Shown here: piece by piece, positions 3,741-62,339 of the stretch
Layout: every line of letters begins with the position of its first letter
How positions within the stretch are numbered: position 1 is the first letter of the stretch
Assembly: GCA_050084515.1 (NCBI GenBank)
Contig: CM114271.1
Location: 42,780,001 to 42,844,000, forward strand
Direction: 5' to 3'
Source of the DNA: Blasia pusilla
Lineage: Eukaryota
Length of the DNA stretch: 64,000 nucleotides
Translations under genes and position numbers: made by a program
Notes under the pieces: generated by a model
The model's input: only the letters and a program-made list of their open reading frames with translations
Told to the model about the DNA's origin: nothing
Database searches by the model: none

Positions 3741-4022
3741 TGCAAGGTGAACTCTCTAAGAAGTTCTCCTTTTTCAATATAAAATTATTATGTATACTCT
3801 CCATTCTCTCACGACAAGCATCACAAATGGAAGTGTCGAGGTGATCACTTCTTCGTAACATCGGACCTCAAAATTCATAACTATAAAATCCCTATAAACT
3901 ACTTTACGCTTGTACACAAGGAAAATAACACAACTAGTGTTAAACCCTACTTGAGCAGACCTATTGACGTCCATGGATCGCTATATAAGGACATACAAAG
4001 TACAATCCCATGACCTTCCACA

Positions 4023-4914: not shown

Positions 4915-4937
4915 TACTGGCTGATTTTACTATACGA

Positions 4938-15901: not shown

Positions 15902-16222
15902 TCAAGAGGTTCGGTGTAAAATTTGGTGGAAATGAATTCTGTCACGGAATTTCAAACCACTCCCAACTAAACCAAATTGTGACTCTGCCTTGTGACTATG
16001 ATAAACAGACAATGCACGTACAATTGTGAAATTGACGAAAGTTTAAGGGAATATATGTATACTATTTTCAGTTACGACGCGAGAGAATTCAACACGTGGC
16101 AAGGAAGGGGTTGTGGAGAGGGAAGGGGGCATTCAAGTAATGAGGAGAGGACGTGTAGGGGAAGGTTACGGGCATTCAAATAACGGGGCGTTAGGTGTAG
16201 GGGACGGATACGCGGAGGGGGA

Positions 16223-16395
16223 TTTAGGTGTGGCCGGTTTAGGGGTAGGAGACGGGTACGGGGGAGGCAAGGGGGTCTTTAGGGATCATGGTGTGCACCC
16301 TGATCTAGTTAGGGGGGGCTTTAGGTGTGGCCGGTTTAGGGGTAGGGGACGGGTACGGGGGAGACTAGGGGGTCTTTAGGGATCATGGTGTGCAC
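16223..16395. repeat. G-rich 76-bp direct duplication
   Basis: 16223-16298 and 16320-16395 are near-identical, with multiple G-runs and isolated TTTAGGG motifs. Confidence 0.85.
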
Positions 16396-16684: not shown

Positions 16685-16880
16685 AATTCCAAATTTTCGT
16701 ATTGTATTTGTTCGTAGTCATATTTCAATTCTTTTAGGTACTTAGGATACTGTCCTAACCTTAGAGAACCTCAAGCAAACCAAATTCCAAATTTTCGTAT
16801 TGTATTTGTTCGTAGTCATATTTCAATTCTTTTAGGTACTTAGGATACTGTCCTAACCTTAGAGAACTTCAAGCAAACCA
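16685..16880. repeat. 98-bp tandem duplication
   Basis: AATTCCAAATTTTCGTATTG...AAGCAAACCA at 16685 and 16783; one substitution seen. Confidence 0.9.
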
Positions 16881-30600: not shown

Positions 30601-33600
30601 ATAGAGATAGGAACTGATTTGCTGATTGTGTACAAGCTGAAATCATGGATGGTCTAGCTGATGCTAGCTCTGACTTTGTACAAGGAGATACTTCTGCTGG
30701 TCAATCATTTTCTCATGCCAGTGACTGAAATCTAGCAAAACTCTCACCAAGTCGGTAGGAGCGGGTCAGTTTTGGTAATCCTCTCACAAAAACTCATACG
30801 CAACAGATTGTGCACATAAATGACATGTCTTAACATTTTCCTATCAGAGTCAAATTGCTTACCGCTACAAGAGACTTCTCCAAAGCTTCTGTAACCATCC
30901 TATCCTGTCCAAGTTGACAAACAACTCCATATAAGTAACCTAAATTTAGAAAGTCCTAGCAGACGCATTTTGGGATGTAACACCAGAAATTGAAGCCACG
31001 TAAAGATAATATAGTAGATGCAGGAGATAATTCCTGGAGAAGGGAGGGAACCATGTATAGTATAAGTATCCACCAATTCACTTTAAATTTATATTAATGC
31101 GAAAAAATCAAGTAAATGTCAAAGACCCCCCGGGTAACAAGGCCATCCTTATTCAGGCACCAGACCCGATAAGTTTTGTGAGCCCAGCTTGCAAATCCCC
31201 GATGCTAACACAGGTAAAGGACTGAATGTAGTCTCCGACGTTGCAAATTTCAGCATCAGTCAGTAACATCTAACCCCCGTTCGACAAGAGGAATTTGAGG
31301 AGCTAACAACTAGAAAACATCCCCTACAGTCTCTCATGCTTACCACCCAGCTTGCAATTCCAGGTAAGTCAGTCACATCAACCCCATAGTTGAAAATAGG
31401 TTTTGCAACCATTCTCAAAATCGGGGCCTCTGAAAAGCATAATCGTAGTCGTTGTACCACAGGCCACCCACTGACAAACCTCACTCCCACTCGAAGCTGC
31501 CAATTGATACCAAAAGGAAAATGAGAAGAAATGACAAAACCATAGAGGCAGTGGATCAAATCTCGCAACTAAAGGAATAAACATAATCATGGGTAGGTAG
31601 TTTGGTGTCCATTTCCAAGCAAAGCACTGTTAATCCATGGCTACAGTCTTCAGCCCACCAAGCTGTCCATCATTACTTCACTAGTAATGAACCCCGACAG
31701 AGCAACTTTAACAGCTCAAAGATAAATCTTTGTTAACACTTTAATTTTACATTTTCTTGTGGAACAAAGACACCATACCTTGCCTTCAAATTGCATGTTG
31801 GAGATGTGAAGTTTAGTCCAAAGGCCAAGTCCAACGCGCCGTTTCATTTGGACTGCTATGACTGCAGACATATCTGTGGCAGCTACAAACTTCATTGCCA
31901 TCTCCAACACCTGCTCTCAGCAGGAGTCAAGACCATCAGGAATTACTCGGATGTATGCATATTTTCATTTTCTTGGAGCAACTTCACCTGACATTGCAAG
32001 CACTCACCAAGTGATCCCCATCTGTAGGGTGGCGCCCAGCACGAAACATTGAAAAAACCGGGGGAGTCCTCCCCAAATATGTTTCTTGTAAAATCACTTT
32101 TTTCTGAAATAGAACAAAGTTCAGGGCAGTCGTGAGACAAGTTGACCAAAAAATAGGCTAAAGCAAATACTAGAGTACATGGTGTGTAATCTTAAGACCT
32201 GACACATGAAATTTGTAAACGTGCCATGGCATGGCGATTCATAGAACGACATGTGCCTATCTGTTCATTAAATAATTCAGTATCATAATTTCATTGAGAG
32301 ATAGAGATAACATCACCGAAAAGTATACACGACTGCAATTAGTACCATGACATGGCTACCCACTATCAAGTAAGTTTTCCGCATCTGTCTAAAACTACCT
32401 GAACGAATGCCGCAGCATATGAAAATTTCACACCCTCTTGCCAGACGATTGAGGATGATTCTAGACAACCAGGCGAGTCCCACAATGAAATGTTGTACAC
32501 AACTAATAATCATTTAACATCTGGAAATACCACATGAGCAAAGTTAACGCACCGCTGTCCAGGGTTTGTACTTGTCCATGAACCAGGGAGCAAGAGCCAT
32601 GAGAACTTTCTGGGATACGAACTGTTCCAAAAAGACTGGCCAAATCGCCTCGATAGCAGCATTTAGCCACCGTCCGGTTTCCGTATCAGACACCAACTGC
32701 CAACACACTCATAATTAGAGTAGGAAGTAGTACATTTTGATGCTCTCTCACGAATCTATAGACAAGGCAACGCATATCATGGCAATGCGCAATGACGAAG
32801 GACGAGGACCTCAAGACAAGTACCCCCTTTCTGTCTTGCGTCTTTCTTTCTTCACTCCGAATCTTTCTCTCAATTTTTTGCCGCATGCTGCCTTCAATCT
32901 ACACCACAAATCACGCGAGAATGTTAAGCTCCATAGGAAACCTCGATCACTCATGGCTTCATTGTCGTGCCTCGACAGCTATACATGTCTGCGAATTGGC
33001 CGGAAAGGTTTTCATAACGAGATCGTATCCAATTGTCCATGAAGTATTACAGATGGGAAAATGGCGACCGGGGAAAGCTTGCGAGTCTCAAACTCTTGAA
33101 TTCGCCGAAACGTGGCGGAAAACCTCTTCCGCTAATTATTGATCGGCAAAACGTTCGTTGATTATTCTAGCTTTAATATAGAATCGACAAGAGCCTCTTC
33201 ATGCCTTTCCAATCCACACTGTATTGAGCTCCGAGATACCAACTCTGCTACATCCACGCCGACAGTGGATCCATCGTCGCGGAAAACTACACTGTTCGAA
33301 TTGTTCATCGTATGCAGGCGGTTGTTCTCAAAGAAGGGCATGATAAACAAATTCGCAGCCAACGTCCACGTTCCCCTACAACTGAAACTACTGAAGGCGG
33401 CCAATATTCCACACAATTCGGCAGCAATTGTTGATTCCACCGTACCACGAAACGAGGAATCTGCAAATGTAGAGCTGCTTATCAAGTGGGACACGTACGT
33501 GATAAAGATAAAGAAATCCCACTGTGAAGACGAAGAGTAAGTTCAACTCGTGACGAGCGGCGATCCATCCCACGACTAGCACGAGGGCAACGTGAAAGAG

Positions 33601-40249: not shown

Positions 40250-43200
40250 TATACAAGGTTTTTTTAGGCACAAGCTTTGCTCTATATTGTCACATAATGG
40301 AGGTGGTTTTGAGAACCTCACTTGCAGTAATTATGAATCCATTAAGTGGGAGGATGATTTTCGTGGTCAAGTGCAAAGGGAAGCGGAAGCATAGAGGAGG
40401 AAGGACAACTCAAAGAGGGATGGCCATGAAGCACTTGACCACGACAGAGTTGAGGGAGCATGTGGGAAAGTTGAACATTCGATTAAGGAGACAATGTTGG
40501 CTTTTGGCTCTAACATCACAACGAATTTGTGCCTTGAGTATTAGGTGAAAGAAACTAGAAGACATGTTAGGATCCGGAGTAGCTGCAAATAGGAAAATTT
40601 TGAGACAATTTCTCAGGAACATAGTGAATAGACATAGAGATGGGGCATTTGGTGGTAAGGAGGGGTTGTGGGATTTCTCCAAAGATTTGGCTAAGAATTT
40701 GTAAAGAGTGTTCAAGGTTTATTGTTATAATAAAAAAACCAAAGTCTTTTCCCAAGCCATATTTCAGTTTGGGAGTGGGCAAGTTGCCCACTACTTTTAG
40801 GAAAACTTGGGAGGGGAAAATGTGAAGACCTTGAAACGTGACAAAGAAAAAAATACCACCCTTGAGAGTTGGGGTGAGAAAAAGAGATATTCAAAGAGGT
40901 CTCCCGAGTACTACTTGCATCAGAACAACTAATTGGAATTGAGGAAGATATACCTTTAATGTTCGTTGAGGATGAAACAAGGATAAAAGAAAGGCCAATG
41001 TGTATTTGAATCTTTGGAGTCACTTCACCTTGATATATAGATATATGGGTATGCACTATCATGATGGTTATACTACTTTGCACATTTATTTGTCATGTCT
41101 ATTGTTCTTTATTGGGCTTGTGTTCTAACTTGATATTGTTGTTGTGATAGATGGGAGGCTAAATATGAGACTTTGATTGGTTTTTTCCGTCCCTCGGAAA
41201 AACATACATGCAAGTATACATGCTCTTTTGGCTTGGAAGTACTTTTTGGGGAAGATAATAGAGATATGACAAAATTGTGAGTATTTTTTAGAAATATGTC
41301 AAAGGTATGTATGCTACAATAGTACTTGTGAATCCTTTGCATGAGAAAATGACAAAATTGGAGCTTTATGCCACCGCAACTTATAATCGATTCAAAGCAG
41401 ACAAGGTGAGAGAGCATTTGGTGCAACTGAAATCCATTTGGGATAAATATTGCACAACAGATGTTGGTCCTATATTGTGGAATGCTTGTGATGGTGATGC
41501 TCATCGTAGGAAATTAATGATGGAAGATTATACTGATGTGAATGGTTCTTTTCCAAGGTACAAGGTAGGGTGGGAAGGGTGGTAGTACTTTATGTCCATT
41601 CTTCCAAATGGATACTTGTATGGCTTTGGAGATATCACGTCTTTTAGGATAGATCGGTGAGATGTAGTAGAGCGCCTTCATGAGTAGTGGATGACAAGCT
41701 CAATAGGTCGAGGATGACCTGTTGAGGCCCTAGGAAATCTAAGAGAGTAGGTTTCCCCTTCGTTTCGGCTCATTTGGAGCCATATTGAAAAACTTACTAT
41801 TTTAGGTAAGTACCCTTTTGAGTATATGCTTGAGTTTCTATTTTTGGTAAATGGCCTTTGACCTCCTACATCAGGTCAAGAGCCAAGGAGGTGACTTGGG
41901 AGAATAGGTTACCATGGAGAGAGCTTGGGAGAGGGGAGGGGTATACCTCAAGGAGAGAGAGCTTGAGAGCTCATTCTCTCTTTGTTGAACCTCTTGGCAT
42001 GAGGCGGCGGAGCTATGGTACCTTGCCTTGTGAGTGTAACCCAAGCCACTCATTAGGAGAGTGGGTTTGGTTTGACATGAGAGAGAGTGCACACCTTTGA
42101 GAGCTATGGTGTGAGATGGTGTAGAGAGAGATTGGATCTTACTTTATTGGATATATTTTAGTACTTCTAGTCTCGTTGTTTGGATGCCATGAGTTTGCAT
42201 GGGATCTTGCGTGTGTGTTCGGTGACAACAATGCATATTGTGTAGCGATGTGTATGCGCACGACAGAGACCAAGATCCACCACACAATGGCAAAAAGGGT
42301 ATTAACCCATTTGATAGATGTGCTTCTATGCTAGTGTTTGGTGACCAACATGTGTCATTGTCTTACATGACATCTATTTATAACCATTATAAAATTGAGG
42401 AGCATCGCTTGAATTGGGATGATTTGAATAGGACCGACACGCAAAATTGGACTAGCCCACAACGGATAGCATCCATGAGAGTGCAAGCCAGGCTACACCA
42501 CATGTTTGAGCGGCAAGATGTTTGACATAATAGAAGCTTTGACATAATAGAAGCTTTGGGACTAAGTTGTACCTTGAGATTTTTGCAAATTACATTGACA
42601 TTTTCTTCTCTGTTAAGCATGACTTGCAAACTCGTATAGTATTGGCATTTAAGGTATCTTGGTTTCACCATTTATGGAGGCTATGGTTGAGATATGATGA
42701 CCATTCTATGACGGGGAATACGTGATGTGTCACATGAAAAGCCTGAATAGAGACATGATCTATATTCATGCTTTTCATGATATCAACATATGCATGTCTT
42801 GTCATTTAATTGTACTCTTAATTTGTGCATTTTGAGACAAGTTTCCATATTTGCAAGTTCCACTTTACTTGCTAGGATCTCATTGTTGTGAGAATTTTTT
42901 CAACAAGGTAGGTGGCATGAGTGGTCATGAAAGAAACTATGATTTTGGATATCTATTAGATAGTGGAGTAGGAGTGAATCAACTGGTTGGCTTAGAGTAT
43001 GAACCAGAAGGATTAAAGATACGTTGCTTTCATCATAAGCAAGATCATGTTTGGGCAAAATTTCATCCTCTTAGTAAGGGAGATCAGGCTCCAAATCTAT
43101 TTTGATTATTCATTGGTTGGCACTAATGAGCTCATTGTTGATGCTCTTAAAGAAGGGTTGGATGCAACAAAAGAGCTTTTGCGGTTGTTGAACATGTCTC

Positions 43201-44190: not shown

Positions 44191-45018
44191 TGTTTATGTT
44201 TGAGACATGTTGGATTCAATCCTTTTGTGGATTGTGCTTACAATATAGTTGACGCTATTGAACTATGAGTAGGATAGTGGGAGGGAGTAGACTAGGGGGA
44301 TGGGAGATTGGCTGACTGAGCTTCTTGCTAAATTAGGAGTTCAATTCCCCTCTATCATAGTGCAAGGACAATATGTTGGATGTTAATTACGGCCTCTACA
44401 AGTGTCGTGTGTTATAAATTCTTGGTCCTGGCGGCTCTACGTTGTGGTTTGTAGTTTTGGATGGAGAGGCCATCTAGCGGTGACTCTATGCTACGTGTCA
44501 CTACAAGAATGGCCATACTAGGAACTAGATCCTCTAGACCAAGAGCATCCTAGGGCAAGCCTTGCGGCTCTGCTCCCTGACGCCGCGTGCGGAAGTTTGG
44601 CAGCCATCTCCACAATATTCTCACGCTCGATCTGCTTTGCTTCATAATATCGGCCGTAGAGCTAGCACGTTTGGTCTGTTACTTCTTGGTTTGTGCGATG
44701 GAAGTCTCGAGAATGGTACGCTTTGCACTAAACTTCCAAGCTCCCACCCTGACACTCTGCCTGCCAATTGCATTTGCTAGTTTGGGCGCTCAATGTGGTT
44801 TTCCTTTCCATCTCCTTTCATTGACCGACAGAGCTTCTGATTTCATCCGAATCTGCTCTTGCGCTCTTGATCAGTTACCTTGGCGCAAGTCACTCTTGGT
44901 CCTGGACTTTGGATTAGCCCATTTTACATTCAACAACTCTTTGTCTTTGTTACGCTGTGGTGCTCATCAAGTTAGTTATCGCCGCTTGAGCAGTTCCGGT
45001 ATTTTTCGAGATCGCTGC

Positions 45019-45516
45019 TGTCACGTCTTTTAGGATAGATCGGTGAGATCTAAAAGAGCGCCTTCGTGAGACACGCCCAGTAGGTTGAGGGTGACCTGCT
45101 GAGGCCCTTGGAAACCTGAGATAGCAGGTTTCCCCTTCGTTTCGGCTCATTTGGGGCCATATTGAAGAACTTATTATTTTAGGTAAGTACCATTTTGAGT
45201 ATATGATCGACTTACTATTTTTGGTAAGTGGCCCTTGACCTCCTACACCAGGTCAAGAGCCAAGGAGGTGACTTGGGAGAATAGGTTACCATGGAGAGAG
45301 CTTGGGAGGGGTATACCTCAAGGAGAGAGAGCTTGAGAGCTCATTCTCTCTTTATTGAACCTCTTGGCATGAGGCGGCGGAGCTATGGTACCTTGCCTTG
45401 TGAGTGTAACCCAAGCCTTTCATTAGGAGAGTGGGTTTGGTTTGACATGAGAGAGAGTGCACACCTTTGAGAGCTATGGTGTGAGATGGTGGAGAGAGAG
45501 ATTGGATCTTACTTTA
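45019..45516 (+). repeat. Repeat A1
   Basis: Matches 54691-55204 with scattered substitutions and two short deletions. Homology stops at GGATCTTACTTTA and is not followed by B. Confidence 0.95.
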
Positions 45517-45531
45517 CAAAGAGAGAATGAG
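45516..45531 (+). promoter_or_regulatory. Putative self-priming PBS
   Basis: ACAAAGAGAGAATGAG is the reverse complement of CTCATTCTCTCTTTGT inside repeat A (16/16 at 55028-55043 and 41970-41985; 15/16 at 45340-45355). That site lies ~28 bp downstream of a TATA-like GTATACC (45311). Confidence 0.7.
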
Positions 45532-46084
45532 AGAGTGAGAGAGATTTATGGGGGAGCTCGCTGGTCACTCGCATTTTTTGCAGGTTGGGGATTGTGTTCC
45601 CCGTTCAGCGGCTCATGGGAGTGCTCACCGGAGCAAGGACTGCTTTCATTATTCTTTGCATTTGCCGATTTTTCGTGTGGAAGAGTGGTGCGCGGAAGCG
45701 CTGCCCATATTTCTGATAGGGATTGAGTATGGGGGCGGGTTGCCCCATGCTGGTGCTCTCGGGAGCACCATGTAGCTTGCTGATTTGTATTTTTACAGAT
45801 GTTACATTTTCGTTGGGAGAAATCAGCGCGGGAGCGTTGCCGAATTTTGTGTAGGAGAAAGAGACATTGGGCTTTACGACAGTCCCCGTCAGTTTTTATT
45901 GAAATGTCCGATTCTAAATATTTTTTAATTCTGGCGTAGATTGTGAAGCTGTGCACGCTGTGCAATAAACAGTGGACAATTTGGAGTTGCGAGCAAAAAG
46001 TTATGGTCAATCTTGTAAAGCTGCCATTGCTAGGCGATTTTTAGGGTTAAATTGTGCAAACCCTAAATCAGCCGCCACACCGGC

Positions 46085-46270
46085 GGTGGCGGTCGCCATC
46101 ATAGTCACCATCACCGTTCGACGGTCAACCATCACCATCACCGTCGATAGTCAACCGTCATAGTCAACGGTCAACCATCGCCGTCGACGGTCAACCGTCA
46201 TCGTCATCGGTCGGCCGTCACCATCAGCGGTCAACCGTCACTGTCAACGGTCCACCGTCCATTGTCCACC
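46085..46270 (+). repeat. Low-complexity CCGTCA/CGGTCAAC short tandem array in the element's 5' UTR
   Basis: Reiterated CACCATCACCGT, ACGGTCAACC and CCGTCATC motifs. Confidence 0.8.
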
Positions 46271-47060
46271 CTTTGGGTGCCTTTGCCGCCATTACGGAGT
46301 GGAGGGTCTTCCACGACGTTCGTTGATTCCTTGACTTGGGTCGCCACCACGTACTTTGTTTTGGCCGCCACCGTCATCGCAGTTTCTTCATCAACCAGTG
46401 ATGGCATATGACCTCCGGTTATGGTGTTTGAGTTTTGATTTCATGCTGCTATGTTGTGATTGGTAGCCGCTTGATGACGATCGAGTATCGTGCCGCTCGT
46501 GGCCGCACCGCACCGTCTCGATCGCGGAGCCGCACCGTCATTGTGGAGCAGAGTGGGGGATTATTATTGATTGAGGAGGGTATGCCGCCGAGTGCCGCAT
46601 CCCACCATCGAGGGCCGTGCCGTTCGTAGCCGTTCCGTGCCGCCTGCAACGCCGCACCGTTCCGTTGGGACCGCACTATCTATCGAGGAGTTTTGAGCAG
46701 CATCAGTACGGGAGGAGTATGACTTGCTGATTGGAGGAGTTGTCTCCACGATCGAGTTGGGGTCGAGATTTGCAGTTGCTGAGGAGCGACATCGACATGT
46801 GTTCAGGTTACCCATTCTGGTCCTTTACCCTACAGGTGTGAGGGATTCTAGGATTTATTTGGGGATATTGGGTGTGTGGATGCTGAGAGCATCATTTATG
46901 TATGTGGTTTAGGGGACATAGACTTGTGTGGGATGTCCGGAGTTGAAGGTAGGTTGTCGATGAGATGATAGCTTGGTCGATTTGCCGCACCACGCCGCGT
47001 GTTGCCGCACGTTACACGTCTCGGGGAGAGAGAGTGTAGATCAAGTGCCGCATGTTTGGG

Positions 47061-48400
47061 ATGAGTGATTGAGGGATTCCTCACGAAGTTCAGAGTGATC
47101 AGGTGAGAGGGGCACGAGGGTCATCACGCAGTCCGTTCGGGACTTTGAGAGGCGAGGTGGTGAACCCGAGAGTAGCTCTAGAGGTTTTACGCGGAGTGGC
47201 GCGAGGTTCCGAGGGTCTCCACGTGAGGGACCACCTCGACCTCCTTCTGTGTCATCGTCAGACGAGGGGGAGGGTGTAGAGGAGTTTGTGAGCACATTGC
47301 CACACTTTGTGAGTGGTCCTACCAGTTGGGCGTACGAGATGGACGACCGGGGTAGAGGACGCGAGGTTTTCAGTGCGATGAGGCACGATTGAGTTGCACG
47401 ATTTTATAGCAGAGTTTAGGAGTTGGTGCAACTCCCAGCGGGCCAGGAACTCTAGAGAGTTCAACCCATTTACAACATGGAACGGTATGTTCCAGCATTT
47501 AGAGGGGGCGCCCGTGGACGATTACCATGAGTTCTCTCAGAGATATGCATGTGAGGTCGAGGCGTGGAGGCTCTACTATGACCCACATTATGTGTCATGG
47601 ACGGAGCCGTTCCCAGATGAAGAGGAGGAGTCGGGAGAGGCTACTTCCTCTTCCACTAGTGACGTTTTAGGAGGGGTCACTCGCACGGGAGCACTTGCAC
47701 CGTCTAGTCGGGTTCGTCCCAGGTTCAACCCTGTGGTTGAGTTCTTTGTTGAGTTGAGGGCGAGCTACCAAGGGGTACGGATGGAGAAGTTGCGGAGCAT
47801 CCACGACTTCCAGAGGCGCCCGGGTGAGAGTTTGCGTGAGGCTTACACTCGCTTGCGCCGGTTGATCAACGTCACTCAGGGGGTGACAGAGACTCAGGCT
47901 ATCCAGTCATGGTACGCGATGCTGGACCAGACCCTACGGACACAGGTGTGGGAGGGGGTGATTCTTATGAACACCTCCCCTACGTTGAGAGATGTTTTTA
48001 GGACCGTTGAGAACATTGAGCGCAACATGGCGGAGGAGATCGTAGCCACCATGGGTTTTGGGCGAGAGCAGTCACGATTGTCTGCACCACCCGTGCAGCA
48101 ACGTGGACTCCGAGATAGGTCGACTGTGGCACCACGAGCTCAGGGAGGATATCGGGAGACCGTGCCACAGAGACCTACGCCTTCATATGCGGCTCAACAG
48201 TAGCTGCCTACTATTACTTGTTGGTCATGTGGTGGAGCCCATCATCAGCGCGATTGCACTCGTTAGGGTCATGGACGTGTGCCTCAGCATGGAGGAGGAG
48301 ATGGTCTTTGCACAGGAGGTTATCAGTGTGACTATAGTCGAGGTATGGTCATACACACGCCAGGTGTTTCAGTTTACATCCTGAGTTACGTCCGGACCGA
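47061..48400 (+). pseudogene. Gag (retrotransposon gag domain + zinc knuckles)
   Basis: ATG 47061 is in frame with ORF 47394-48203 (FFVELRASYQG...DFQRRPGESLREAYTRLRRL). CWSCGGAHHQRDC at ~48219-48257, plus a second degenerate knuckle. In-frame stops present. Confidence 0.8.
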
Positions 48401-49089
48401 GGGCCAGAGAGGGCACCAGAGCGAGTAGCCGGTCCGGGTGCACCTAGAGATCGTGCACCAGGTGGTCCCGTTGGGGGACGAGGAGCTGGAGTTGCCCGAC
48501 AGGGTGGTGGAGCTGCTCATGGAGGAGGTAGAGTACCACCACCTAGACGCGCCGAGGGAGATGCCGGACGTGAGGCTGGGATGGTCGCTCGAAAGACCTC
48601 TGAGGAGCGATTGCCGCTATGGCATTGAGGTTACCCGATGCCGGATCCGTGGCATCGACATCATATGGAGCATCCAGAGATCTCGAGGATCTTGGATGGA
48701 TGTGTGGGGTTGCCCAGATGGAGGCCACCGCAGTTGTGACGCGTGGAGCAGCCGCAGAGTTGGATCCACAACGAGGGGAAGCCAGAAGACAGACTAGGCT
48801 TCCTCAGTCTTTCATGTTGTCCGAAGCGAAGAGGATCCCATCGCTGGGTCCTCATCAAAGTTCCTCGAGAGTTGGTGATGTTATTGGTGTGCAGGCACGA
48901 AGGGCAATGGGAGAAGCGAGTGCAACGACTCCTATTGTTGATGCTCAGGAGGGGCATGTGTCGAGCACGTTGTTGGGGGCGGCCACCGTTGTGTACCGCA
49001 CTCCTTTATTTTCTGCTTCGATGTTATGACGTTGGGGGGTACGCCCGCCAAGGCTTGGCTGGCTGGCCGCTTCACTATGTGAGCGCGAG

Positions 49090-49640
49090 TTGGAGTTCTG
49101 CATCACGTTCAGAGGTGATTGCAGAGGAGGTGATGGACCTGCCCTTGAGCGGATGCTCGGGCCGCCCACGTCGATTCATGGTAGGTCGGTCGCTAGGATG
49201 GCGGAGATGCCCGCTAGACCCGCGATAGAGCGTGCCATGGCTTCTCCTGGTGTTGTGTTGCTGGATAACCGAGGAGAGGTCTTCCAATTGGTGAGTCCTG
49301 GAGGTAGAGCTTTTAGTCCGCAGCGTGTCTTGTTGGATTCAGGAGCGCAACCCTTGATGTTGGGGAAAGTGTCATTCAGAGGATTGGGCTTGACGAGAGC
49401 CGATGTGGAGCGTTGTCCATTTCGGATATAGACATCCTTGGGTGGAGCGAGTACCACACAGTATATCACCCGACAGGAGGTCGTGGTGAGGATTCGCCCG
49501 GGACATCCTACAGATGAGTCCGTGGTGCGCGCCAAGGTGATAGTGACTGATGCAGAGTCCTACGACGTCTTGGTTGGTAGAGCAGTGTGTACCCGATGGG
49601 GTTTTCCCTGGATTATTGGGAGGAGTCAGCGTCCTACAGA
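49090..49640 (+). pseudogene. Aspartic protease
   Basis: RVLLDSGAQPLMLG catalytic motif (~49324-49365) and YDVLVG C-terminal motif. Confidence 0.85.
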
Positions 49641-50039
49641 CCAGGATGGCAGTTAGGTGATGGGCGCCTTAGCTCATTACCCGTTCGATTCACAGGTGCA
49701 GTGATCGAGCAACGGCCAGGAGAGATGGCGACCTTAGCAGCATTTAGCAGTGCCATCACTTGGCCTAGTGATTTGATTGAGGGACATGTCCATGCAGAGG
49801 ATACTCCCGTTCCTGACATTTCTATGGAGAGGAGTGTTATGGTAGCTGCATCATTCCGTGGAGGAGAGGTGCCGCTGTGGGGCTCGACTGAGGAGCTTCA
49901 ATGATTGGCAGATGAGCACGTGCAGACCGCGTGGAGCGAGGCGTTTGCACCAGAGCGTGACGGGTCTGAGGAACCCGAGGTAGCAGGGAGTGCTACGATG
50001 ACACCCTTGGATACCACAACCATTGTGTGGTGTACCCCG

Positions 50040-50975
50040 GAGGAGGGTATTTGAGTGTTAGATCTCTTTGGAGGGATTAGCACCGGGTTAGCTGCTGTTT
50101 TGCAGGCAGGAGTGCGAGTACAGCAGTACCTGTCTGTGGAGAGTGATGATGTTGCACGACGCGTCTCACTATGACATGTGTCGCAATTACGCCTACGTTT
50201 TCCCGACTTATTGTCTGCGTCCGCAGTACAGGGGTACCAGAGTTCCCTACCGAGGGATATTTTGTTGTTGGGGGCGCAGGACTTAGAGCGGGTAGTGACC
50301 ATTGATTTGGTCATTTCCGGTTGGCCATGTCAGGGCCAATCAAGTGCTGGACGAGGCAGCGGGTTGGCTGACACTCGGTCCAGGTTGTTTTGGGAGATGT
50401 TGAGGGTCTTACGGCAGTTGCAGGAGCACCAGTCTCGTTCTCCAGCCTACATTCTGGAGAATGTGCCGATCTTAGGAGACTCCAGGTCACGGATCATGAC
50501 GAGTGCTCATCAGGTGCGTGCCTGGATCGGCCTAGCAGTGTTCTTGGATGCGGCGAGTGTAGGTTCTAGAGCCCATCGCCCGCGTCTATGGTGGGCCACT
50601 TGGTGCCCCATGCGGTGTTATGGAGGGCGTATGCGAGAGTGGAGCGCCCCTCCCCTTTGTTAGTGGATTCCATTTCGATCCGGTCGCCGATCACAGCAAG
50701 CGGTGAGGCACGATGATCGACCACCGCCGTTGGTCAACAGTAGTCAGGGTAGGCAGCGCCGTGGCGCGCCTTGCCCACGTTTGTGAGTTTTCCCGCTTCC
50801 TATGCATACAAGGAGGCCGGTCCTGGCTTGGTTTGGGATGACCAAGTTCAGCGGTTGGTGGAGCCCAACGCCGACGAGAGAGAGTGAGCGATGGGATTTC
50901 CCATAGGAGTGACGGCAGTACCATCATCATCGGAGAGGCATCACGACGCCATGTCTTGGGTCAGCGATGGACTGA
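50040..50975 (+). pseudogene. C5 DNA cytosine methyltransferase domain (DNMT3-like) within pol
   Basis: Motif I VLDLFGGI (50055), II SVE, IV GWPCQG (PCQ 50325-50333), VI ILENV (ENV 50457-50465), VIII AHRPRLWW, IX/X ERE*AMGFPIGVT...RRHVLG (~50877-50960). In-frame TGA stops at 50052 and 50172; indels after ~50600. Confidence 0.9.
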
Positions 50976-51339
50976 ATCGCTTGACATGGATCCTCGGCCT
51001 TGGGAGTGGGCGAGGCGTCGTATGAGATCGCGACAGATCAGCCGGTTGTGTTGGTGAGCCCCATGCCTACCGAGACGGTGGAGGCAGTGGCTGGGGGCGA
51101 GACCCGAGGAGATATACGCACCAGGGGAGATCGGGAGAGACAATCTTGGACTTCTTGGGATGTTTTGCAGGTACGCAAGGAGATGATAGCCACAACATTG
51201 AGCATGGTTTCGGGCACTGCACGTGGAGGAGATTAGAGTTTGCAGTTGGCTGCAGGAGAGCGGCCGAGTGTTGTTGTTCGAGACGGGGTTGCACCATAGC
51301 AACCACCGATACCCGCGCCGGAGAGTCCTATCGTAGTCA

Positions 51340-52780
51340 CGATGGAGACTTGGGAGCCAGATATGGGCCCTAAGTTGACAGGAGGAGAGCGGCGCCGAAT
51401 ACATCAGTTCCTCAGGAGTTATAGGAGCTGCTTTCCGTTTAGCATGGAGGATTTGGGTACGTTGAAGGGAGCGAGGATCCGCATTGATTTGTCGAGTGAT
51501 ATGCCGATCTTCCGACGACCCTACAAGTACAGTGATATGGAGAGGGCTCTGATTCAGAGTAGGAGCCAGGACTTGGTTGGAGCAGGACTAGTGGAGATGT
51601 CGCATGGGGAGTATGCATCTGCCACTCTCATGCCCGCCAAGAAGGATGTGCATGGCAACTGGACGGATAGGCGGATGTGTGGGGATTACCGACCTATGAA
51701 TCGGCAGACGAAGTCCGATAGGTATGCCATGCCCACCCCTGAGGAGATCTTTGATGCGATTGGTCACGCAAAGGTCTTGATTCATTGATTTATGAGCCGG
51801 ATACCATCACCCCGATCAGATTGGAGGACAAAGTAAGACGGCATTTTGGGGCATCGATCCTCACGGGAAGGATTGTTTGTACCAGTGGCGGTTCTTACCA
51901 TTTGGGTTAAAGAACGCCCCGGCTGAGTTTCAGAGGGTCATGGATAGGATCTTGGCTGGTCTGGATTTTGCTAGGTGTTATATTTATGACATCGTAGTCT
52001 TTAGCGCCACGGTTGAAGAGCATGAGCAACATCTAGAGGAGGTGTTTCGACGATTGCAATTACATGGGCTGAAGCTACATCCGGGCAAGTGCAAGTTCTT
52101 CTACAACCAGATTGAGTACTTGGGTCATACAATATACCCAGGGGACCTTGGTGTTCAGCAGACGAAGGTAGAGGCTATCTCACGCATTCCACGCCCTACA
52201 GATGTGAGCCGTGTTCGCACATTCATGGGATTGGCGAACTTCTATTGGCGATATGTCAAGGGATTGATTCGATTATGGTCACTGACCTTGCTGACCAAGG
52301 TGGATCACGAGTGGCACCGGGGATGAGCAGGAGCGAGCATTTCAATTGCTCAGGACAAAGTTGGCGTCCGCACCCATCTTGAGGAGACCGATCGGGCGTC
52401 CTTTCGATTTGCACGCATTGGAGCATGTTGGGGCTTGGAGCGGTGCTCACCCAAAGCATGATGATGAGGGTAGAGAGTTCGTGGTGGCTTACGCTAGCCG
52501 CTCGAACAACGTTGCAGGCAAAGTATAGCTCGTATGAGGGTGAGTGCTTGGTGCGGTGTGGGCATCGCGCATTTCAGGTGTTACTTATTCGGCAACCCTT
52601 TACCATCATCATCGATCATCAACCACTGAAGTGGTTGATGGAGTCCGACAAGCTTGGGGAAGCTTGCCGGATGGGCTCTGTTGTTGCAGGAGTATGATTT
52701 TCAGGTGGTACATAGACTGGGGACGCTCAACCAGGATGAGATGGGTTGAGTCGTAACCCATGCCCGAGTCAACGAGATGC
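51340..52780 (+). pseudogene. Reverse transcriptase and RNase H
   Basis: YASATLMPAKKD...RRMCGDYRPMN...YAMP; LPFGLKNAPAEFQRVMD; YIYDIVVFS (YIDD mutated); EYLGH; GLGAVLTQ, VVAYASRS, YSSYEGECL, DHQPLKWL. Confidence 0.92.
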
Positions 52781-53099
52781 GGATCGGAGCTCGATGGCAT
52801 GGAGAGAGTGATGAGGAGTCGGTGCCAGGATGGCACGCGTCAGCCTATTTAGGCATGTTGGCTATGGAGAGCCAGAGTGTGGAGACTTCGATGGCGAGGT
52901 CTAGTGGAGAGTCCTTGGATCCTGAAACCAGTGAGGACACGACAAGTGGCCGAGATATTCATGATGATGGAGTAGTCTTAGAGTACCTTCAGATCTTGGC
53001 GACCTTGCAAGCACCATGGATGCTAGAGAGCGGGATCGGATCCTACAACGGGCCAGACGGTTTCGTTGGGAGGGGACACATGTTTTGAGGGTTTGGGAG

Positions 53100-54381
53100 G
53101 ATGGCAGAGTACGCGTAGCGCCGCATCCTTCGCAGAGAGCACGACTAGTGCAGCATGCCCATGAGGAGTTGGGTCACTTTGGGGTGAAGCGGACGATGCG
53201 GCTTGCTCCATTCAGTATTGGTGGCGAGGCATGCAGATTGGCGTTGAGTTTGTTTCAGGTGCATGGTGTGTGATCGGGTCCGAGCATCGTTCAATGCTCC
53301 GACTCCTCCGATTGCATCCATTACCGATCATGGGCTTAGGGTATAGATGGAGTTTGGATTTTGCGGGACCTTTGCCCTTGACGGAGCATCACAATCGTTA
53401 TGTGTTGGTGATGGTCGAGCACTTCTCAAAGTGGATCGAGTTGGTTGCATTGCCTGACAAAGCGAGTGAGGGAGTAGCTTATGCCTTCCTTGACAGAGTT
53501 TGAGTCATTATGGTGCACCGGTGAGGTGTTGATGAGACAGTGGTACCGAGTTTAGCGGTGAGTTCAGGCCTTGTGTGATCGGCGATCGACCACCGCCGCG
53601 ACCGCAGCGAGATCATCCCGAGGCGGATGGATTAGCGGAGAGAGTTGTCAGACGGTGAAGAGGGGTTTACGCAAGTATGGCTTGCAGAGAGGTCACCTAG
53701 GAGATTGGGACCTCGATTGCCATGGTTGGCGATGGGATACAAATTCAGCAGCGAGGCATCCTTAGCGTCTTTTTCACCGTACTTGCTACTTTATGGCGAG
53801 AGCCGATTTACCTCTGACCATTCGTCGAGATCTTTGGTGAGGTTTGGACCTTGATGACCCAGATGTATGGGTGCGAGCATGTTCTCAAAGGGCTGAGTTA
53901 TTTCGGAGAGTGATGCCCATGGCGTTCGAGAACTTGGCGATTGCACAACATCGGGATACATTGAGGTATGCGACTATTCGGGGTGGTGGTTATCGACCAA
54001 CTATCCGGAGGTTTCATCGGGAGATTATGTCTACTTGCGCAGACGGCACCGACGGCGTTGGATGTGATCAGAGGGCGCACTATCCGAGAGTGCGTGACAT
54101 TTTGCCATCGGGTGTTCTCTTGCTGGAGGGACGCGATGGTATGGTATGGAAGGATCATGTGCGTAATTGTGCGCCATGTCACCTTCCTAACATTGATGGT
54201 ACAGTAGATCCGAGCTTAGCAAGAGTTCCGCATGCTTGCGTTGTATGTTGTGTGGTTACGCCGGTAGTGCGCCACGATGCTAGTCTGTGATGGGTGTTCG
54301 AGAGGATGACATATGGCATGTTTGGCGCCACCTCTCACTAGGGTTCCTCGGGGGCGATGGATGTGTCCCGGATGTACCTGA
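53100..54381 (+). pseudogene. DDE integrase with C-terminal PHD finger
   Basis: HHCC zinc-binding region (HAHEELGHFG...C..C); WSLDFAGPLP...LVMVEHFSKW; GTEF; ADGLAE. PHD at ~54240-54378 (frameshifted here, intact in the 5717-5854 copy). Confidence 0.9.
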
Positions 54382-54551
54382 GTAGGTAGTTCTACATTCC
54401 GACTTGTGTATGTGACATGGATGACAAGGAGGCGACTAACGATGGGGCCACATGAGCACCCGGCCTTCTTGCTCTTAGCGTCTGAGAGATGTATGTCATG
54501 GTAGGTAGGGATAGATGGCTATATGGAGTTAGAGGGACCTAACCACCAGTT

Positions 54552-54560
54552 AGGGGGGCG
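54552..54560 (+). promoter_or_regulatory. Putative polypurine tract preceding B1
   Basis: AGGGGGGCG immediately before B1, conserved as AGGGGGGTG at 6029-6037. No purine tract precedes the TG of A2. Confidence 0.6.
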
Positions 54561-55333
54561 ATTGGAGATATTTTGGTACTTCTTGTCTCGTTATTTGGAT
54601 GCCATGAGTTAGCATGGGATCATGCGTGTTTGTGTTTGTGTTCGGTGACAGCGATGTATGTTGTGTAGCGATGTGTATGGGCACGACAGCTGTCACGTCT
54701 TTTAGGATAGATCGGTGAGATCTAATAGAGCGCCTTCGTGAGTAGTGGAGGACACGCCCAATAGGTCGAGGGTGACCTACTGAGGCCCTTGGAAACGTGA
54801 GATAGCAGGTTTCCCCTTCGTTTCGGCTCATTTGGAGCCATATTGAGGAACTTACTATTTTAGGTAAGTACCATTTTGAGTATATGATCAACTTACTATT
54901 TTTGGTAAGTGGCCCTTGATCTCCTACATCAGGTCAAGAGCCAAGGAGGTGACTTGGGAGAATAGGTTACCATGGAGAGAGCTTGGGAGAGGGGAGGGGT
55001 ATACCTCAAGGAGAGAGAGCTTGAGAGCTCATTCTCTCTTTGTTGAACCTCTTGGCATGAGGCGGAGGAGCTATGGTACCTTGCCTTGTGAGTGTAACCC
55101 AAGCCTCTCATTAGGAGAGTGGGTTTGGTTTGACATGAGAGAGAGTGCACACCTTTGAGAGCTATGGTGTGAGATGGTGGAGAGAGAGATTGGATCTTAC
55201 TTTAATTGAAGATATTTTGGTACTTCTTGTCTCGTTATTTGGATGCCATGAGTTAACATTGGGTTCATGCGTGTTTGTGTGTGTATTCGGTGACAGCGAT
55301 GTATGTTGTGTAGCGATGTGTATGCGCACGACA
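54561..55333 (+). repeat. 3' terminal B1-gc-A2-B2 array
   Basis: B1 (54561-54688) and B2 (55205-55333) are ~128-bp direct repeats flanking A2. The B1/A2 junction GACAGCTGTC (54685-54694) is a perfect palindrome. Confidence 0.95.
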
Positions 55334-58300
55334 CTGCCGCTCACAATTAGGTAAGCTTTCTTAGCTTTCGCTTATGTTCTTATTATCTTTACTCGTTGCT
55401 TGTGTATTTTTACCTTACTGATTACTAGATTACCGAAACCGGACGATTCCGAGAACTTCTACCTCGCCCAACTCTCTTCTTCTTGTCGCGTAGAAATTCC
55501 CAACCCCGAGGAGATGTTAACGTGAGAGCCTCACCGTTACATCATCCGCCGGATGCTCAGTCGTGCCTTTGGTTGGGGAAACAAATTCTTCATGTGCCCT
55601 TCGTCAAGTGGATTTCTCTGCCTACTCCAGTCTCCAATCTCTACCATGTCTTTCTCATCTCAATTTTTCCGACCGCAATAAATTCCTCAACATGTCACCT
55701 GCATCCCTGAAATCTTCAGACATTTTTCGCAGCCTTATCTTTCCACCACCTTCTTGTTGTCCCTGAAATCCACCTCGTACTGTACGATCTCCGTGAACAC
55801 GGTGTTTGCATTGTTGGATGGCATATGCATACGGTGTGTCAATAGATCTGAAACTGACATTAGAGATTGCATCCTTCCCCTTCTTGTTTCCCTTCCATGG
55901 CGGCTATTTCCAAGGGACCTCAACATTTTTTGACTATAATCGTGCTCGGAGCCGCCAACTATTTAGTCCATTTTCTTTGTTTGAGCCTTATGCTTCATTA
56001 ATGTACCAGATACGGCAAGCAATTGCGTTATGCTCTACCTCAAAAGCATTTGTTCTAAATAGGGAACTAGACCAACTTCGTAGAGATATGCCCCACTTGA
56101 GTGATGCGAGCTTGCATCACCATCTTTCTAAGTATTCAATTAGCCCCCAGATCCCAGGAAGCCCTGCATGGCATCGAAGGTATTTGAAAGATTTAAAGGC
56201 TTTGGCGCACAAATGGGGAATGCCATATTTTTTCTTAACACTAACTTCTAACAAAGTATCTGCAACAAGATGGAATGAATTTTATGATATTGAAGCTATA
56301 CTTGCCAAGTTTAACCCTGACTTCACTTGGCGTGATGCTCCAACTGAGTGTGCACTATTATTCCATACCAGACTCCACTCTTTTATATCTTCATTCAGTT
56401 TTTTAGGCCCACGTATCTTGGGAAGAGTTGCAGAATATTTGCTTTGTTATGAATTACAGGGCAGAGGGAGTTTGCATTGCTATATGATTTTATGGGTCTA
56501 TCCTGATGATGTTGGACGAATTACGTCAGAAATATGTTCATATATTCCATGTCCTGACCCCAATCTACATCTGCTCCATCCTAGATCTACCCTCAACCCA
56601 AGTGAAGAACTATTAAGCCTAGTGCTTAAGAAGATATCAAAGACTTGGAATCAAGAGTAGGTTTTGAAGACCGTACTACTAACTATCTCCAAAATGATTT
56701 GGGATCGGGATGTCACCCCTACTAACAGCAACAACGAGTATTGATGTTGTTTGTCTTGATGTAGAAGTTGTTACAGCTCATTTTGCTTTCAACATTCCGA
56801 TCCGTGGTGATATTCCATCTATGCATGCTACTCCAGATCCCTACATGAAACTTAAGGTTGCCCATGTGATTGTAGTTGATGATTTCTCAATGCTGACAAC
56901 AAAACTCTTGCAGATTATAGTCATGCGAATAAATGAAGTTGCAAAGTGCAGTAGCCAAAATCTGCTCGAAGGAAAGCTCCTCATCCTTGTAGGCCACCTA
57001 TGCCAGCTTTCACTGTTTGCAGCCACAAGGTTTCCAATTTATGTCATGGCTACCATATTACTTCCTCTAATTTCCTAAAGAGTGCACTCTCCTTTGAATT
57101 GGTTACACCTGTACGACATTCAAGTGATCCTCTTTATAATCAATTCCTAACTTCTATCAGATCTGCTATTCCAGCACAGGCCCAGATTGATGACAATCTA
57201 GGACCCTGTTTTGTGTCTCGGAATGAAGCTACAGATTTCATCACTTCTAACACAACAATCATTTGTAATCATTGTGATGATGTGGCCATGTTCAATCTCC
57301 TATCCCTCAGAAGAATTTTTGGAGATGCTTCTATTATCAAAGTGGACGTTATTTCTTACGCTCCTCCACAACCAGAATTTGATATTTGGTTAAATGATGA
57401 ATCTTTCCACCAACTACCATTCGTTGCGCTCCACTGTCGAGTTATGATTACATCTAATGTTAACTTGAAGTGCAAGGCAGCCAATGGATCTCTTGGTAGT
57501 GTTTGATCTTATCTATGAGAACAATGAGTTGGTTTATATTGTTATCATTCTTCAATCCAATGGACATTCTATCAAAATAGGTAGAATTTCTCTACTCTAA
57601 GGTATGACTCGTATCGTAAATATATCAAGAGGTCATTTCCACTTATATAAGGCTATGCCATGACTGCACACAAAATTCAAGGTTCCAATGTTGAAGGTCG
57701 TTATTTTCTGGTTGTTCAGTCAATTTTTGCATTGGGATTAGCCTATGGTATGCTATCTAGGGTAAAAAATAGAGATCTATTGCGCATATTAGGATCATTG
57801 GACCCTAATGGCTTCCTAGTAATTGGTCAGCGGGTTGCAAGTGTCTCTTAATTTTGTATTGTTACATTTTATGTAGCTTTTATATAAGCATATCGGCCAG
57901 AGCCAGCTCAAGCAAGGGACGTAGTGTCAGATCTGTTCCTCACTCACAACAAAATGAGTAGTTTCCTTTATATGACCATGAACCGAATCCAACGATTATG
58001 AGATCTTCAATCTCAGCGATAGAATCAAACCCCCACTCAATCACCAATACAGGTTAATCCCTATGCCTCCCTTCCCTCATTTTCTATATTGTCTTTTGTT
58101 GCTGTATCTAATTCATGACCCACATGTGCCCTCAAGTTACCTGGACTTTGCTAGCATGATACTTTCAGACATTCAAACACAGCCAAAGGAATTCAAGCCC
58201 AGGTTCATATTTCCCACAAAAAACAGATATAATACGTGGACAACCTAGGGATGGTTCCTGCCTTTTGGGAGCATGGTGTGACGGGAAGGCAGATCCAGAG

Positions 58301-61236: not shown

Positions 61237-61551
61237 GGTCTCCCGAACTACATAGTCCAACTAGGCTTGTGGTTGTTCCTTCAACATCTAAAAGATGGCG
61301 AGCTGAACCTCATTTGAAACTCACCGAAGTTTGAACCCCTGCGACCTTACTTCAAGCGTTATTGCTACCTTTCTTCTTCATCAGAGATAACTCCTTGGTC
61401 TCCCCAACCACATAGTCCAACTGGGCTTGTGGTTATTCCTTCAACACCTAAAAGATGGCGCGTTGAACCTCATTGAAACTCACTCAAGTTTGAACCCCTG
61501 CAACCTTACTTCAAGCGTCATTTCTAACTTTCTTCTTCACCGGAGATGACT
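61237..61551. repeat. ~160-bp diverged tandem duplication
   Basis: GGTCTCCC...CATAGTCCAACT...TTTCTTCTTCA at 61237 and 61397; probably TE-derived. Confidence 0.8.
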
Positions 61552-62339
61552 ATTTGTGGGTCAACCCCTCCAAGGTCTTGTTCCTCCAACAAGTTGCCAA
61601 GAGTCTTGGATGGGGAGTTTTCTTGAAGGGGAGGGGAGGGATTTTGGCTTTGTCCCCCCAAGTAGCTATGTCCCTTTTTCACCAAAGGCTAGTCACAAGA
61701 CATGTCCGCGTCTCGCCTAATTAGCTTAGTGGCTGGTTCTGCCCCACTTCCTATGTTTGCAACTAGCTAGTCTAGGTTGCAACTTTGATGGGTCATATCA
61801 AGGTCTTTTCTCCTTGGACCCGCAATCATGATTCTCTTCCTAAGTCCTCCGCTAGTGTGGGCTCAAAAGACTAAGATATTCACAATCCGCCTAGTCAGAA
61901 ACAATAGCTCGCCTACTATGCAAGAGAGTGCTCTATTTGCACGTAACGGATCAAGTAGAAGTAGAGATCCTGGTAGAAGCTTCCCTAGTTGTGGTGGACA
62001 TATGGATATAACACACATCATTACGAATCAACTCCAATATCTTGAATGCTCTTCTACCTTGCTTTGGAAATAAAAAGCTAGCTTATTTTCCAAATTTCCA
62101 AGAAGGGCATACCTCTAACATAGTAGGATTCGACACTTTAGGAAGTCCTATCATTAGATTAGATGATGAAAGACTCTACAGTTTTTGAAGATTCATATGC
62201 CCTATTCTCTCATGCCAGACATTGAAATCTTTGACTTGTTGGATAGTTTGACCATACATTGTTGTTTGAATCTATGACATGGAAACATTTAATTTGATCG
62301 TTGTTTTGAGATCTTATTCCAACACATTCTTAAATTACG

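Follow-up and report, generated by a model that had tools for sequence, protein, structure and literature searches.

A decayed Gypsy-DNMT3 element of Blasia pusilla with split direct repeats and a predicted joint of its cDNA ends inside the insert

A DIRS-like repeat layout on a Gypsy body is already in print. KnitGypsy-Dnmt3 of Klebsormidium nitens is described as having a DIRS-type repeat structure together with Gypsy-typical domains (de Mendoza et al., 2018, PMC5890265, legend of Fig. 4c). The accessible sections of that paper contain for KnitGypsy-Dnmt3 no analysis of the primer-binding site (PBS) or the polypurine tract (PPT), no target-site duplications (TSDs) and no mechanism. Among the papers searched, the name KnitGypsy is used only there. 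A 2026 preprint mentions streptophyte Gypsy-DNMT3 elements, and the accessible part of its text does not discuss their repeats. Likewise, no mechanism for the layout was found in the accessible parts of the literature on split direct repeats, KnitGypsy, Gypsy-DNMT3 and PHD-finger integrases. Here, we describe an element with such repeats in a stretch of 64,000 nucleotides of Blasia pusilla (assembly GCA_050084515.1, contig CM114271.1, positions 42,780,001 to 42,844,000 of the forward strand). This whole stretch is called the window, and positions are counted from its first letter.

The full copy of the element spans 45019-55333. A direct-repeat search and alignments resolved it into two repeat units, A of about 500 bp (from TGTCACG to CTTACTTTA) and B of about 128 bp (from ATTGGAG to CACGACA), in the order TSD(CTGC)-A-PBS-internal-PPT-B-A-B-TSD(CTGC). 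The internal part is a frame-broken Ty3/gypsy body with gag, protease, a C5 cytosine DNA methyltransferase (C5-DNMT), reverse transcriptase, RNase H, an rve-type integrase and a C-terminal PHD finger. We lean towards reading the full copy as a decayed Ty3/gypsy element of the Gypsy-DNMT3 kind that integrated via a complementary DNA (cDNA) whose ends had already been joined.

Two sets of boundaries in one insertion

The full copy agrees with canonical Ty3/gypsy elements in its domains, termini and TSDs and departs from them in its long terminal repeats (LTRs). Instead of identical terminal LTRs, with a PBS after the 5' LTR and a PPT before the 3' LTR, it carries A only at its 5' end and B-A-B at its 3' end. 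The first bases of the inserted unit are TG, belonging to A, and the last bases are CA, belonging to B, within TGTC...GACA termini. The two A copies are 94.2% identical and the two B copies 94.6%, a near-equal divergence that fits the expectation if both pairs arise in one replication cycle. The odd layout is not an assembly habit, since an unrelated element in the same window is entirely normal in this respect. This young Ty1/copia copy (25249-30715), with open reading frames (ORFs) that match copia gag, rve and RVT_2, has ordinary LTRs of 681 bp that are 100% identical, TG..CA ends and the 5-bp TSD TGCCA.

For comparison, 80 metagenome loci were fetched by DNMT alignment, and 37 of them carry A or B of one related family. 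Counts were made after merging contigs with common flanks. Apart from about 45 nt at the end of B and about 30 nt ahead of the G-tract that precedes B, the sequences of this family bear no resemblance to A and B of the window. The stretches conserved between the families correspond to window positions 54640-54695, which hold the B end with GC and TGTCA, and 54525-54560; the loose ends of RNA reads described below break at the same points.

A preliminary description, made from the letters of the window, had pointed to a PPT-like G-tract before B1 and a PBS-like sequence after A1, and had proposed that reverse transcription defines a B-A repeat. Both sites were borne out, and the PBS could be refined to a 14-15 nt complement of A. 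The PBS (CAAAGAGAGAATGAG) is the reverse complement of CTCATTCTCTCTTT(G) within A, over 14 nt when compared with A1 and over 15 nt when compared with A2 and the solo A-B copy of the window. Shuffle controls fell short of this: the longest complement was 12 nt among 2000 shuffled versions of the 60 nt after A1, and 11 nt among 500 of A1 itself. The partner sequence starts 28 nt downstream of a TATA-like box. The corresponding pair in the related family, CTCAAAGAACTATGTT and AACATAGTTCTTTGAG, differs in sequence; AACATAGTTCTTTGAG lies inside A, about 30 nt after a TATAAAG box. Here pairing is complete (16/16) in L005 and L016/L023 and amounts to at least 12/16 in 17 of 21 tabulated loci, a table in which three pairs of rows represent one insertion each. 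Two families thus keep the pairing despite quite different sequences, which amounts to covariation at the family level. The arrangement fits self-priming of the Tf1 type: complementarity and a position 28-30 nt after the TATA box were seen in two families, with the 5' end of the RNA placed from motifs and read depth only.

The sequence TGGGGG..., about 35 nt downstream of A1, was considered as a PBS of the tRNA type and rejected, as the bases following TGGGGG differ between both families. No tRNA gene was found in the window. The TGTAA in A2 is presumably a poly(A) motif of the algal type. With these landmarks, U3 would consist of B and the first 337 nt of A, and R and U5 of the remainder of A. 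Since the PBS directly follows A and the G-tract directly precedes B, the cDNA should read B-A-internal-B-A. The alignments show that the predicted boundaries of reverse transcription define a B-A repeat, as had been proposed: PPT/B and A/PBS coincide with the two sides of the A2/B2 joint, in the window as well as in related loci.

The ends used for integration lie elsewhere. The predicted cDNA ends, ATTGG... and ...CTTTA, are without TG/CA, and these dinucleotides sit at the internal B/A site, in agreement with the preliminary description. Perfect 4-bp TSDs flank the A-start and B-end in eight of ten checkable pairs (CTGC and GAGA in the window; AAGG, TCTC, TGTT, TGTG, TACA and CACA in the loci). 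Of the two exceptions, L071 matches at 3/4 positions and L060 has AATG on both sides, next to a damaged A1 start. The spacer between CA and TG at the B/A joint is exactly 2 nt long in six of seven distinct joints, being GC three times, AC twice and AT once. The differing spacers are transitions from GACAGCTGTC; the joint of L074/75 has a deletion.

At the A/B joint, the base that would directly precede the PBS is joined to the base that would directly follow the PPT. This holds exactly for the full copy in the window, L020 and L060, with one substitution for L023, and with 1 nt missing for the solo copy. The one-base difference between full copy (TTTA/ATTGA) and solo copy (TTTA/TTGGA) noted at the outset was thereby reproduced. 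L064 is also 1 nt short; a 17-nt filler that repeats nearby A sequence and 3 retained PPT bases follow. In L039/L044 the joint (L039 13177-13194; L044 5690-5707) holds 9-10 nt identical to the PBS start plus 7 nt. In total, three of seven distinct A/B joints have a length difference, a filler or a PPT or PBS remnant, and host DNA contigs show TTT, TTTA or TTTC between the A/B anchors. The expectation that A/B joints are heterogeneous and B/A joints constant in length was therefore correct. Taken together, these comparisons show integration boundaries at the internal palindrome and the predicted joint of the two cDNA ends inside the insert. L039 and L044 represent one insertion, which is also without B1 and the 5' half of A2.

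Related loci, RNA cover and coding content

On the 3' side of the related family, complete A-internal-B-A-B or internal-B-A-B followed by flank was found at L020, L023, L060 and L064. B-A is cut by the contig end at L004 and L074/75, and L039/44 has a partial A, filler and then B. At 11 loci B is directly followed by flank (L029, L030, L035, L037, L040, L042, L043, L053, L062, L071 and L077), and four of these carry A1 at the opposite end. The conserved G-tract stands directly 5' of B in 17 loci. On the 5' side, B precedes A in 0/24 loci (0/21 distinct 5' ends), and neither B-A nor A-B-A occurs there. The 5' A is immediately followed by the PBS motif CTCAAAGAA... in 20/23 cases and by B in 0/23. 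All eight distinct tandems (seven loci and one in the window) are found on the 3' side. The forms seen are A-internal-B-A-B, A-internal-B and solo A-B, and A-B-A-internal-B was never observed among the 21 distinct 5' ends.

A-internal-B accounts for 11 distinct 3' ends, compared to four complete and two contig-cut B-A-B ends. In a tree built from the 2 kb before the PPT, A-internal-B is interspersed with the tandem form. The youngest copies, with terminal branches of 0.035-0.05, comprise four of each form, and A-internal-B makes up four of the five oldest. Terminal branch lengths of A-internal-B and A-internal-B-A-B do not differ significantly (Mann-Whitney p 0.27, 9 vs 6 loci). With the forms interspersed and the age difference not significant, A-internal-B may have arisen either at insertion or by later B x B deletion, and solo A-B may likewise be of either origin. 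In one related element, L049, tandem repeats of 230 nt with telomere-like TTAGGG runs (8400-8900) break into the 3' end, which was uninformative on the layout.

Reads of two stranded RNA runs that bear the same species label were mapped to the region 53300-55400. On the sense strand, the internal 3' part, B1 and A2 are covered to a depth of about 150-390. Depth drops to 47/36 in the last A2 bin and 16/24 over B2, and is about 3 beyond. The fall before B2 is about 4- to 10-fold, the depth of B2 is about a tenth of that of B1, and the reads crossing the A/B joint number 6 and 4 in the two runs. Since B2 lies mostly outside the RNA, it must be remade from B1, which is in line with the equal divergence of the A pair and the B pair. 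Reads with loose ends reveal an expressed subfamily in which the likeness is confined to the last ~40 nt of B, the GC spacer and the TGTCA of A. In the same region, most differences between copies are of the type G>A or C>T (in X1, for instance, 57 and 39 of 194 places). This excess fits deamination of methylated cytosines in a silenced family.

The ORFs of the window and a nearly intact relative reveal the domain order of Ty3/gypsy elements, protease-reverse transcriptase-RNase H-integrase with gag upstream. This relative, L003, has zf-CCHC, DNMT, RVT_1, RNase H, H2C2 and rve in a single frame. The PF00145 match sits between protease and reverse transcriptase, placing the C5-DNMT inside the Gypsy polyprotein as in Gypsy-DNMT3 elements, and in the Marchantia proteins P0002, P0004 and P0018 the order is gag, protease, DNMT. 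Liverworts and mosses (Marchantia, Calypogeia, Sphagnum) supply the closest named proteins to the window copy, and further named relatives come from some green algae. Among 120 relatives of the C-terminal region, most carry rve and PHD (PF00628) and several also a DNMT. A tyrosine recombinase (PF00589) was found neither in 20 window ORFs nor in 6 ORFs of relatives nor in the Pfam lists of the 120 relatives. Ten ORFs on both strands, including the 1.8-kb leader, had no Pfam match, and viral contigs scanned with the DNMT alignment contained no relative. The leader of about 1.8 kb between PBS and gag is far shorter in the related family.

The integrase of the relative P0035 aligns with Ty3 integrase (E 5e-44, whole chain 7q5b) and with the integrase of PFV. 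The second catalytic Asp is a Glu (motif VMVEHFSKW; window 53165-53503) in the window copy and in 33 of 34 motif-matching relatives (P0021-P0142). Chlorophyte proteins are among these 33, and the one remaining relative has Asp. A PHD finger (window 54237-54383) takes the place of the chromodomain, with the PHD domain of ATXR5 as its best solved match. The features of the window are collected in Table 1.

Table 1. Coordinates of the full copy, its coding remnants and the two further copies in the window
Feature	Position	Strand	Remark
Third copy, 3' part	1-6134	+	starts before window edge; ends G-tract (6029-6037)-B (6038-6134, internally shortened), then flank; without A or second B
Solo A-B copy	41633-42265	+	GAGA TSD at 41629-41632 and 42266-42269
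Left TSD CTGC	45015-45018	+	same 4 nt again at 55334-55337
A1, 498 bp, start TGTCACG, end CTTACTTTA	45019-45516	+	has TATA-like box, PBS partner 45340-45353 and TGTAA
PBS, predicted self-priming type, adjoins A1	45517-45531	+	reverse complement of 14-15 nt within A
Internal part	45517-54560	+	between A1 and B1
Long leader without recognizable ORF	45532-47381	+	no Pfam family above cut-off
gag remnant, frame broken further 3'	47382-48203	+	resembles N-terminus of Marchantia gag-PR-DNMT polyproteins (by eye)
Aspartic protease remnant, LLDSGAQ	49030-49431	+	translation; motif also in P0004; without Pfam match
C5-DNMT remnant	50175-50663	+	PF00145, E 8e-12
Reverse transcriptase, two ORF pieces	51300-52326	+	RVT_1, E 1e-21
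RNase H	52383-52697	+	RT_RNaseH, E 2e-8
Integrase zinc domain (Integrase_H2C2) and rve core, D-E-E	52968-53503	+	both below Pfam cut-off in decayed copy
Integrase C-terminal region ending in PHD finger, frameshifted	53841-54383	+	relatives and Pfam
Polypurine-like G-tract AGGGGGGCG, putative plus-strand primer site	54552-54560	+	kept in 17 related loci
B1, 128 bp, start ATTGGAG, end CACGACA	54561-54688	+	alignments
Palindrome GACA-GC-TGTC at B1/A2 joint	54685-54694	.	contains both integration-end sequences
2-nt spacer GC between B1 and A2	54689-54690
A2, 514 bp	54691-55204	+	TATA 55000-55003, PBS partner 55028-55042, TGTAA 55093-55097
A2/B2 joint	55204-55205	+	last pre-PBS base meets first post-PPT base
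B2, 129 bp, right integration end GACA	55205-55333	+	DNA depth of family stops here
Right TSD CTGC	55334-55337	+

The window is eukaryotic and transposon-rich. About 460 bp downstream of the element, the ORF 55797-56660 matches the N-terminal domain of Helitron-like helicases (PF14214, E 5e-19). Repeats in tandem or near-tandem order, all of them short (82, 98 and 84 nt), lie at 16217-16395, 16685-16880 and 61314-61556.

A route of integration and its rivals

On the reading that we lean towards, reverse transcription, self-primed after A and primed by the G-tract before B, would yield B-A-internal-B-A. The ends of this cDNA would be joined beforehand, either in a 2-LTR circle closed by host end-joining or by an end-to-end template switch during reverse transcription. 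The integrase of the element would then nick 3' of CA on both strands of the internal palindrome, GACA^GC TGTC. Because the two nicks would be 2 bp apart, recessed CA-3'OH ends should result, the normal substrate of strand transfer. Joined-end cDNA cut at the B/A site would give A-internal-B-A-B, which would be the sole linear permutation cut at this site with R at both transcript ends. A-internal-B would be the product if the substrate of the integrase were a 1-LTR circle, or if a linear cDNA were cut at its two internal sites. This form should be replication-dead because it is without a 3' R.

Several points weigh against this reading. We infer all mechanistic steps past reverse transcription from old, decayed copies, and A-internal-B and solo A-B could just as well be later deletions. 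Almost all RNA reads stem from other copies, with only 20 and 27 reads that are at least 99% alike. No pile-ups of read starts or ends were flagged in the two RNA runs, and transcript start and poly(A) site were placed from depth and motifs. In the predicted integrase, Glu replaces the second catalytic Asp in nearly all relatives (33/34). Furthermore, the polarity of the tandems is unexplained: 8/8 distinct tandems are 3', and 0/21 distinct 5' ends have B-A or A-B-A. A symmetric 2-LTR circle has two identical B/A sites, and therefore A-B-A-internal-B would be expected to be as common as A-internal-B-A-B. There are two possible ways out. The process may be polar, with the plus strand switching from the A end to the B-start, or A-B-A may be lost fast by recombination between the longer and closer A repeats.

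In the version closest to the preliminary description, a 2-LTR circle would be closed by host end-joining and either of the identical B/A sites cut at random, giving A-internal-B-A-B and A-B-A-internal-B equally; cutting of both sites, or 1-LTR circles, would give A-internal-B and free A-B. The A/B joint equals the two predicted cDNA ends, and the templated 17-nt filler of L064 and the PBS remnant of L039/L044 look like aberrant circle junctions. Of the four permutations that had been predicted, A-internal-B-A-B, A-internal-B and A-B indeed occur in the window and the metagenome loci. However, the fourth is missing: A-B-A-internal-B was seen at 0/21 distinct 5' ends compared to eight distinct 3' tandems, which has a chance of about 0.004 under equal choice and survival, and the two B/A sites are indistinguishable by sequence. 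We therefore consider this symmetric circle an unlikely version of events. The circle origin as first suggested is in agreement with the variable A/B joint, but a template switch in reverse transcription or a 1-LTR form fits equally well. The accompanying statement that the route would be unusual for DDE elements holds. All observations of the preliminary description were thus reproduced, and its interpretation is supported in part.

A second version dispenses with the closed circle. Here, the plus strand would switch at the A end to the B-start and recopy B, and the integrase would nick the palindromic duplex, so that only A-internal-B-A-B results; where no switch takes place, the internal sites of the linear cDNA would be used and give A-internal-B. 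Such a route would account for the tandem being found 3' only and for A-internal-B being common among equally young copies, and a reverse transcriptase that slips or adds untemplated bases could also produce the fillers and the minor differences at the joints. On the other hand, the route is deduced only, no known rule forbids the mirror-image switch of the minus strand, and the L064 filler fits host end-joining equally. We regard it as improbable to the same degree as the symmetric circle.

A further version is copying of the whole layout as in DIRS or Ngaro elements. RNA would run from A1 into B2, the internal B1-A2 would serve as a splint, and A-internal-B-A-B would be inherited, the integrase merely inserting it. 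Tyrosine-recombinase elements do share the A-internal-B-A-B layout (PMC5890265, legend of Fig. 1e), only one permutation is described in both groups, and some A/B variants are common to many host contigs. Against this stand the low RNA depth of B2, about a tenth of B1, and the few reads across the A/B joint. Nor does this type of copying explain why the A/B joint falls at the boundaries of PBS and PPT, or why remnants of the two occur in joints. With no tyrosine recombinase found in the window ORFs or the relatives, and with TSDs and TG/CA ends present, we judge it very improbable.

That an ordinary LTR element, with A or A+B as its LTR, was made odd by rearrangement, nesting or misassembly has practically no chance in our view: A of the related family alone does begin with TG and end with CA, and the copies are old with many indels, but both the window and independent contigs show the layout, each time with separate TSDs, the accessible part of the published account draws it for K. 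nitens, and the window also contains a normal copia element. A as the LTR is ruled out by 0/18 distinct 3' ends finishing with A, and A+B by 0/23 5' A copies continuing into B.

The reading of integration via joined-end cDNA can be extended beyond the single copy. We tentatively propose that a green-plant Ty3/gypsy lineage with a D-E-E integrase, a PHD finger and often a DNMT may have moved the integrase site from the cDNA termini to an LTR-internal palindrome. Integration would then need the joined-end form, a circle or a tandem LTR, and the integrase would be a site-specific linearizing nuclease. If this possibility were true, joined-end cDNA would be a productive intermediate and not a dead end. 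With a DDE enzyme, the lineage would have converged on the split-repeat logic of tyrosine-recombinase retroelements, and would mark a step towards the episomal circles of caulimoviruses.

Significance and comparison with known systems

Compared to what is in print, the layout in bryophyte families, the putative self-priming PBS, the A/B joint at the primer boundaries and the remnants in the joints are new. The same is true for the 2-nt palindrome spacer, the D-E-E integrase and the strict polarity of the tandems. Whether joined-LTR circles can feed integration has been debated in retrovirology for decades. Genomic fossils of two diverged families that hold the predicted cDNA-end joint inside the insert make this question testable in plants. 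They also offer a reason for the DIRS-like repeats on a Gypsy body, which were left unexplained in 2018, and suggest that split direct repeats may arise whenever the integration site and the ends of reverse transcription are offset. In practical terms, LTR finders that expect identical terminal repeats would report wrong limits, date copies by the A pair only, miss B2 and call A-internal-B truncated. With three chromatin-directed parts, a DNMT, a PHD finger and an altered integrase triad, the element is a candidate for studying the interplay between transposons and host silencing.

KnitGypsy-Dnmt3 and the window copy are alike in their Gypsy-type pol, the Dnmt3-like C5 methyltransferase in the polyprotein and the DIRS-like repeats, as far as the published account goes. 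This likeness is one of description, and the nearest named proteins of the window copy are bryophyte, not Klebsormidium. Ngaro and PAT elements of the DIRS order have the same A1-internal-B1-A2-B2 split direct repeats, and are believed to pass through a joined or circular intermediate, as we propose for the window element. In contrast, they encode a tyrosine recombinase, whereas the window element has an rve-type integrase, 4-bp TSDs and TG/CA ends. To our knowledge, Ngaro and PAT elements are without TSDs and TG/CA ends. The window element is not a member of the DIRS order, since it has no tyrosine recombinase and does have TSDs.

Caulimoviridae have a circular DNA, equivalent to a 1-LTR circle, which can give terminally redundant RNA and carries discontinuities at the primer sites. 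We know of no integrase and no obligatory integration in this group. Junctions of retroviral circles are variable and may carry PBS or PPT remnants. The retroviral palindrome is itself the joint of the cDNA ends, whereas in the window element it lies within the LTR and the predicted cDNA-end joint, A/B, is non-palindromic; the spacer of the palindrome is 2 nt here and 4 in retroviruses. Retroviral 2-LTR circles and the window element would nevertheless be alike in that a CA..TG palindrome is cut by integrase into integrable ends, and cleavage of palindromic LTR-LTR junctions by integrase has been reported for foamy virus (PMC1180852) and HIV-1 (PMC1905944), as far as the accessible text of these papers goes.

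Self-priming is known from Tf1/sushi and Tcn1 elements, including those of non-seed plants, with a complementary core of 10-16 nt (PMC6317226, accessible part of the text). There, too, the PBS directly follows the LTR and is complementary to an LTR site predicted as the 5' end of the RNA. These elements have ordinary identical LTRs and a chromodomain, whereas the window element has permuted repeats, a PHD finger and a DNMT. The window element may thus combine self-priming of the Tf1 type with integration in the manner of a circle junction.

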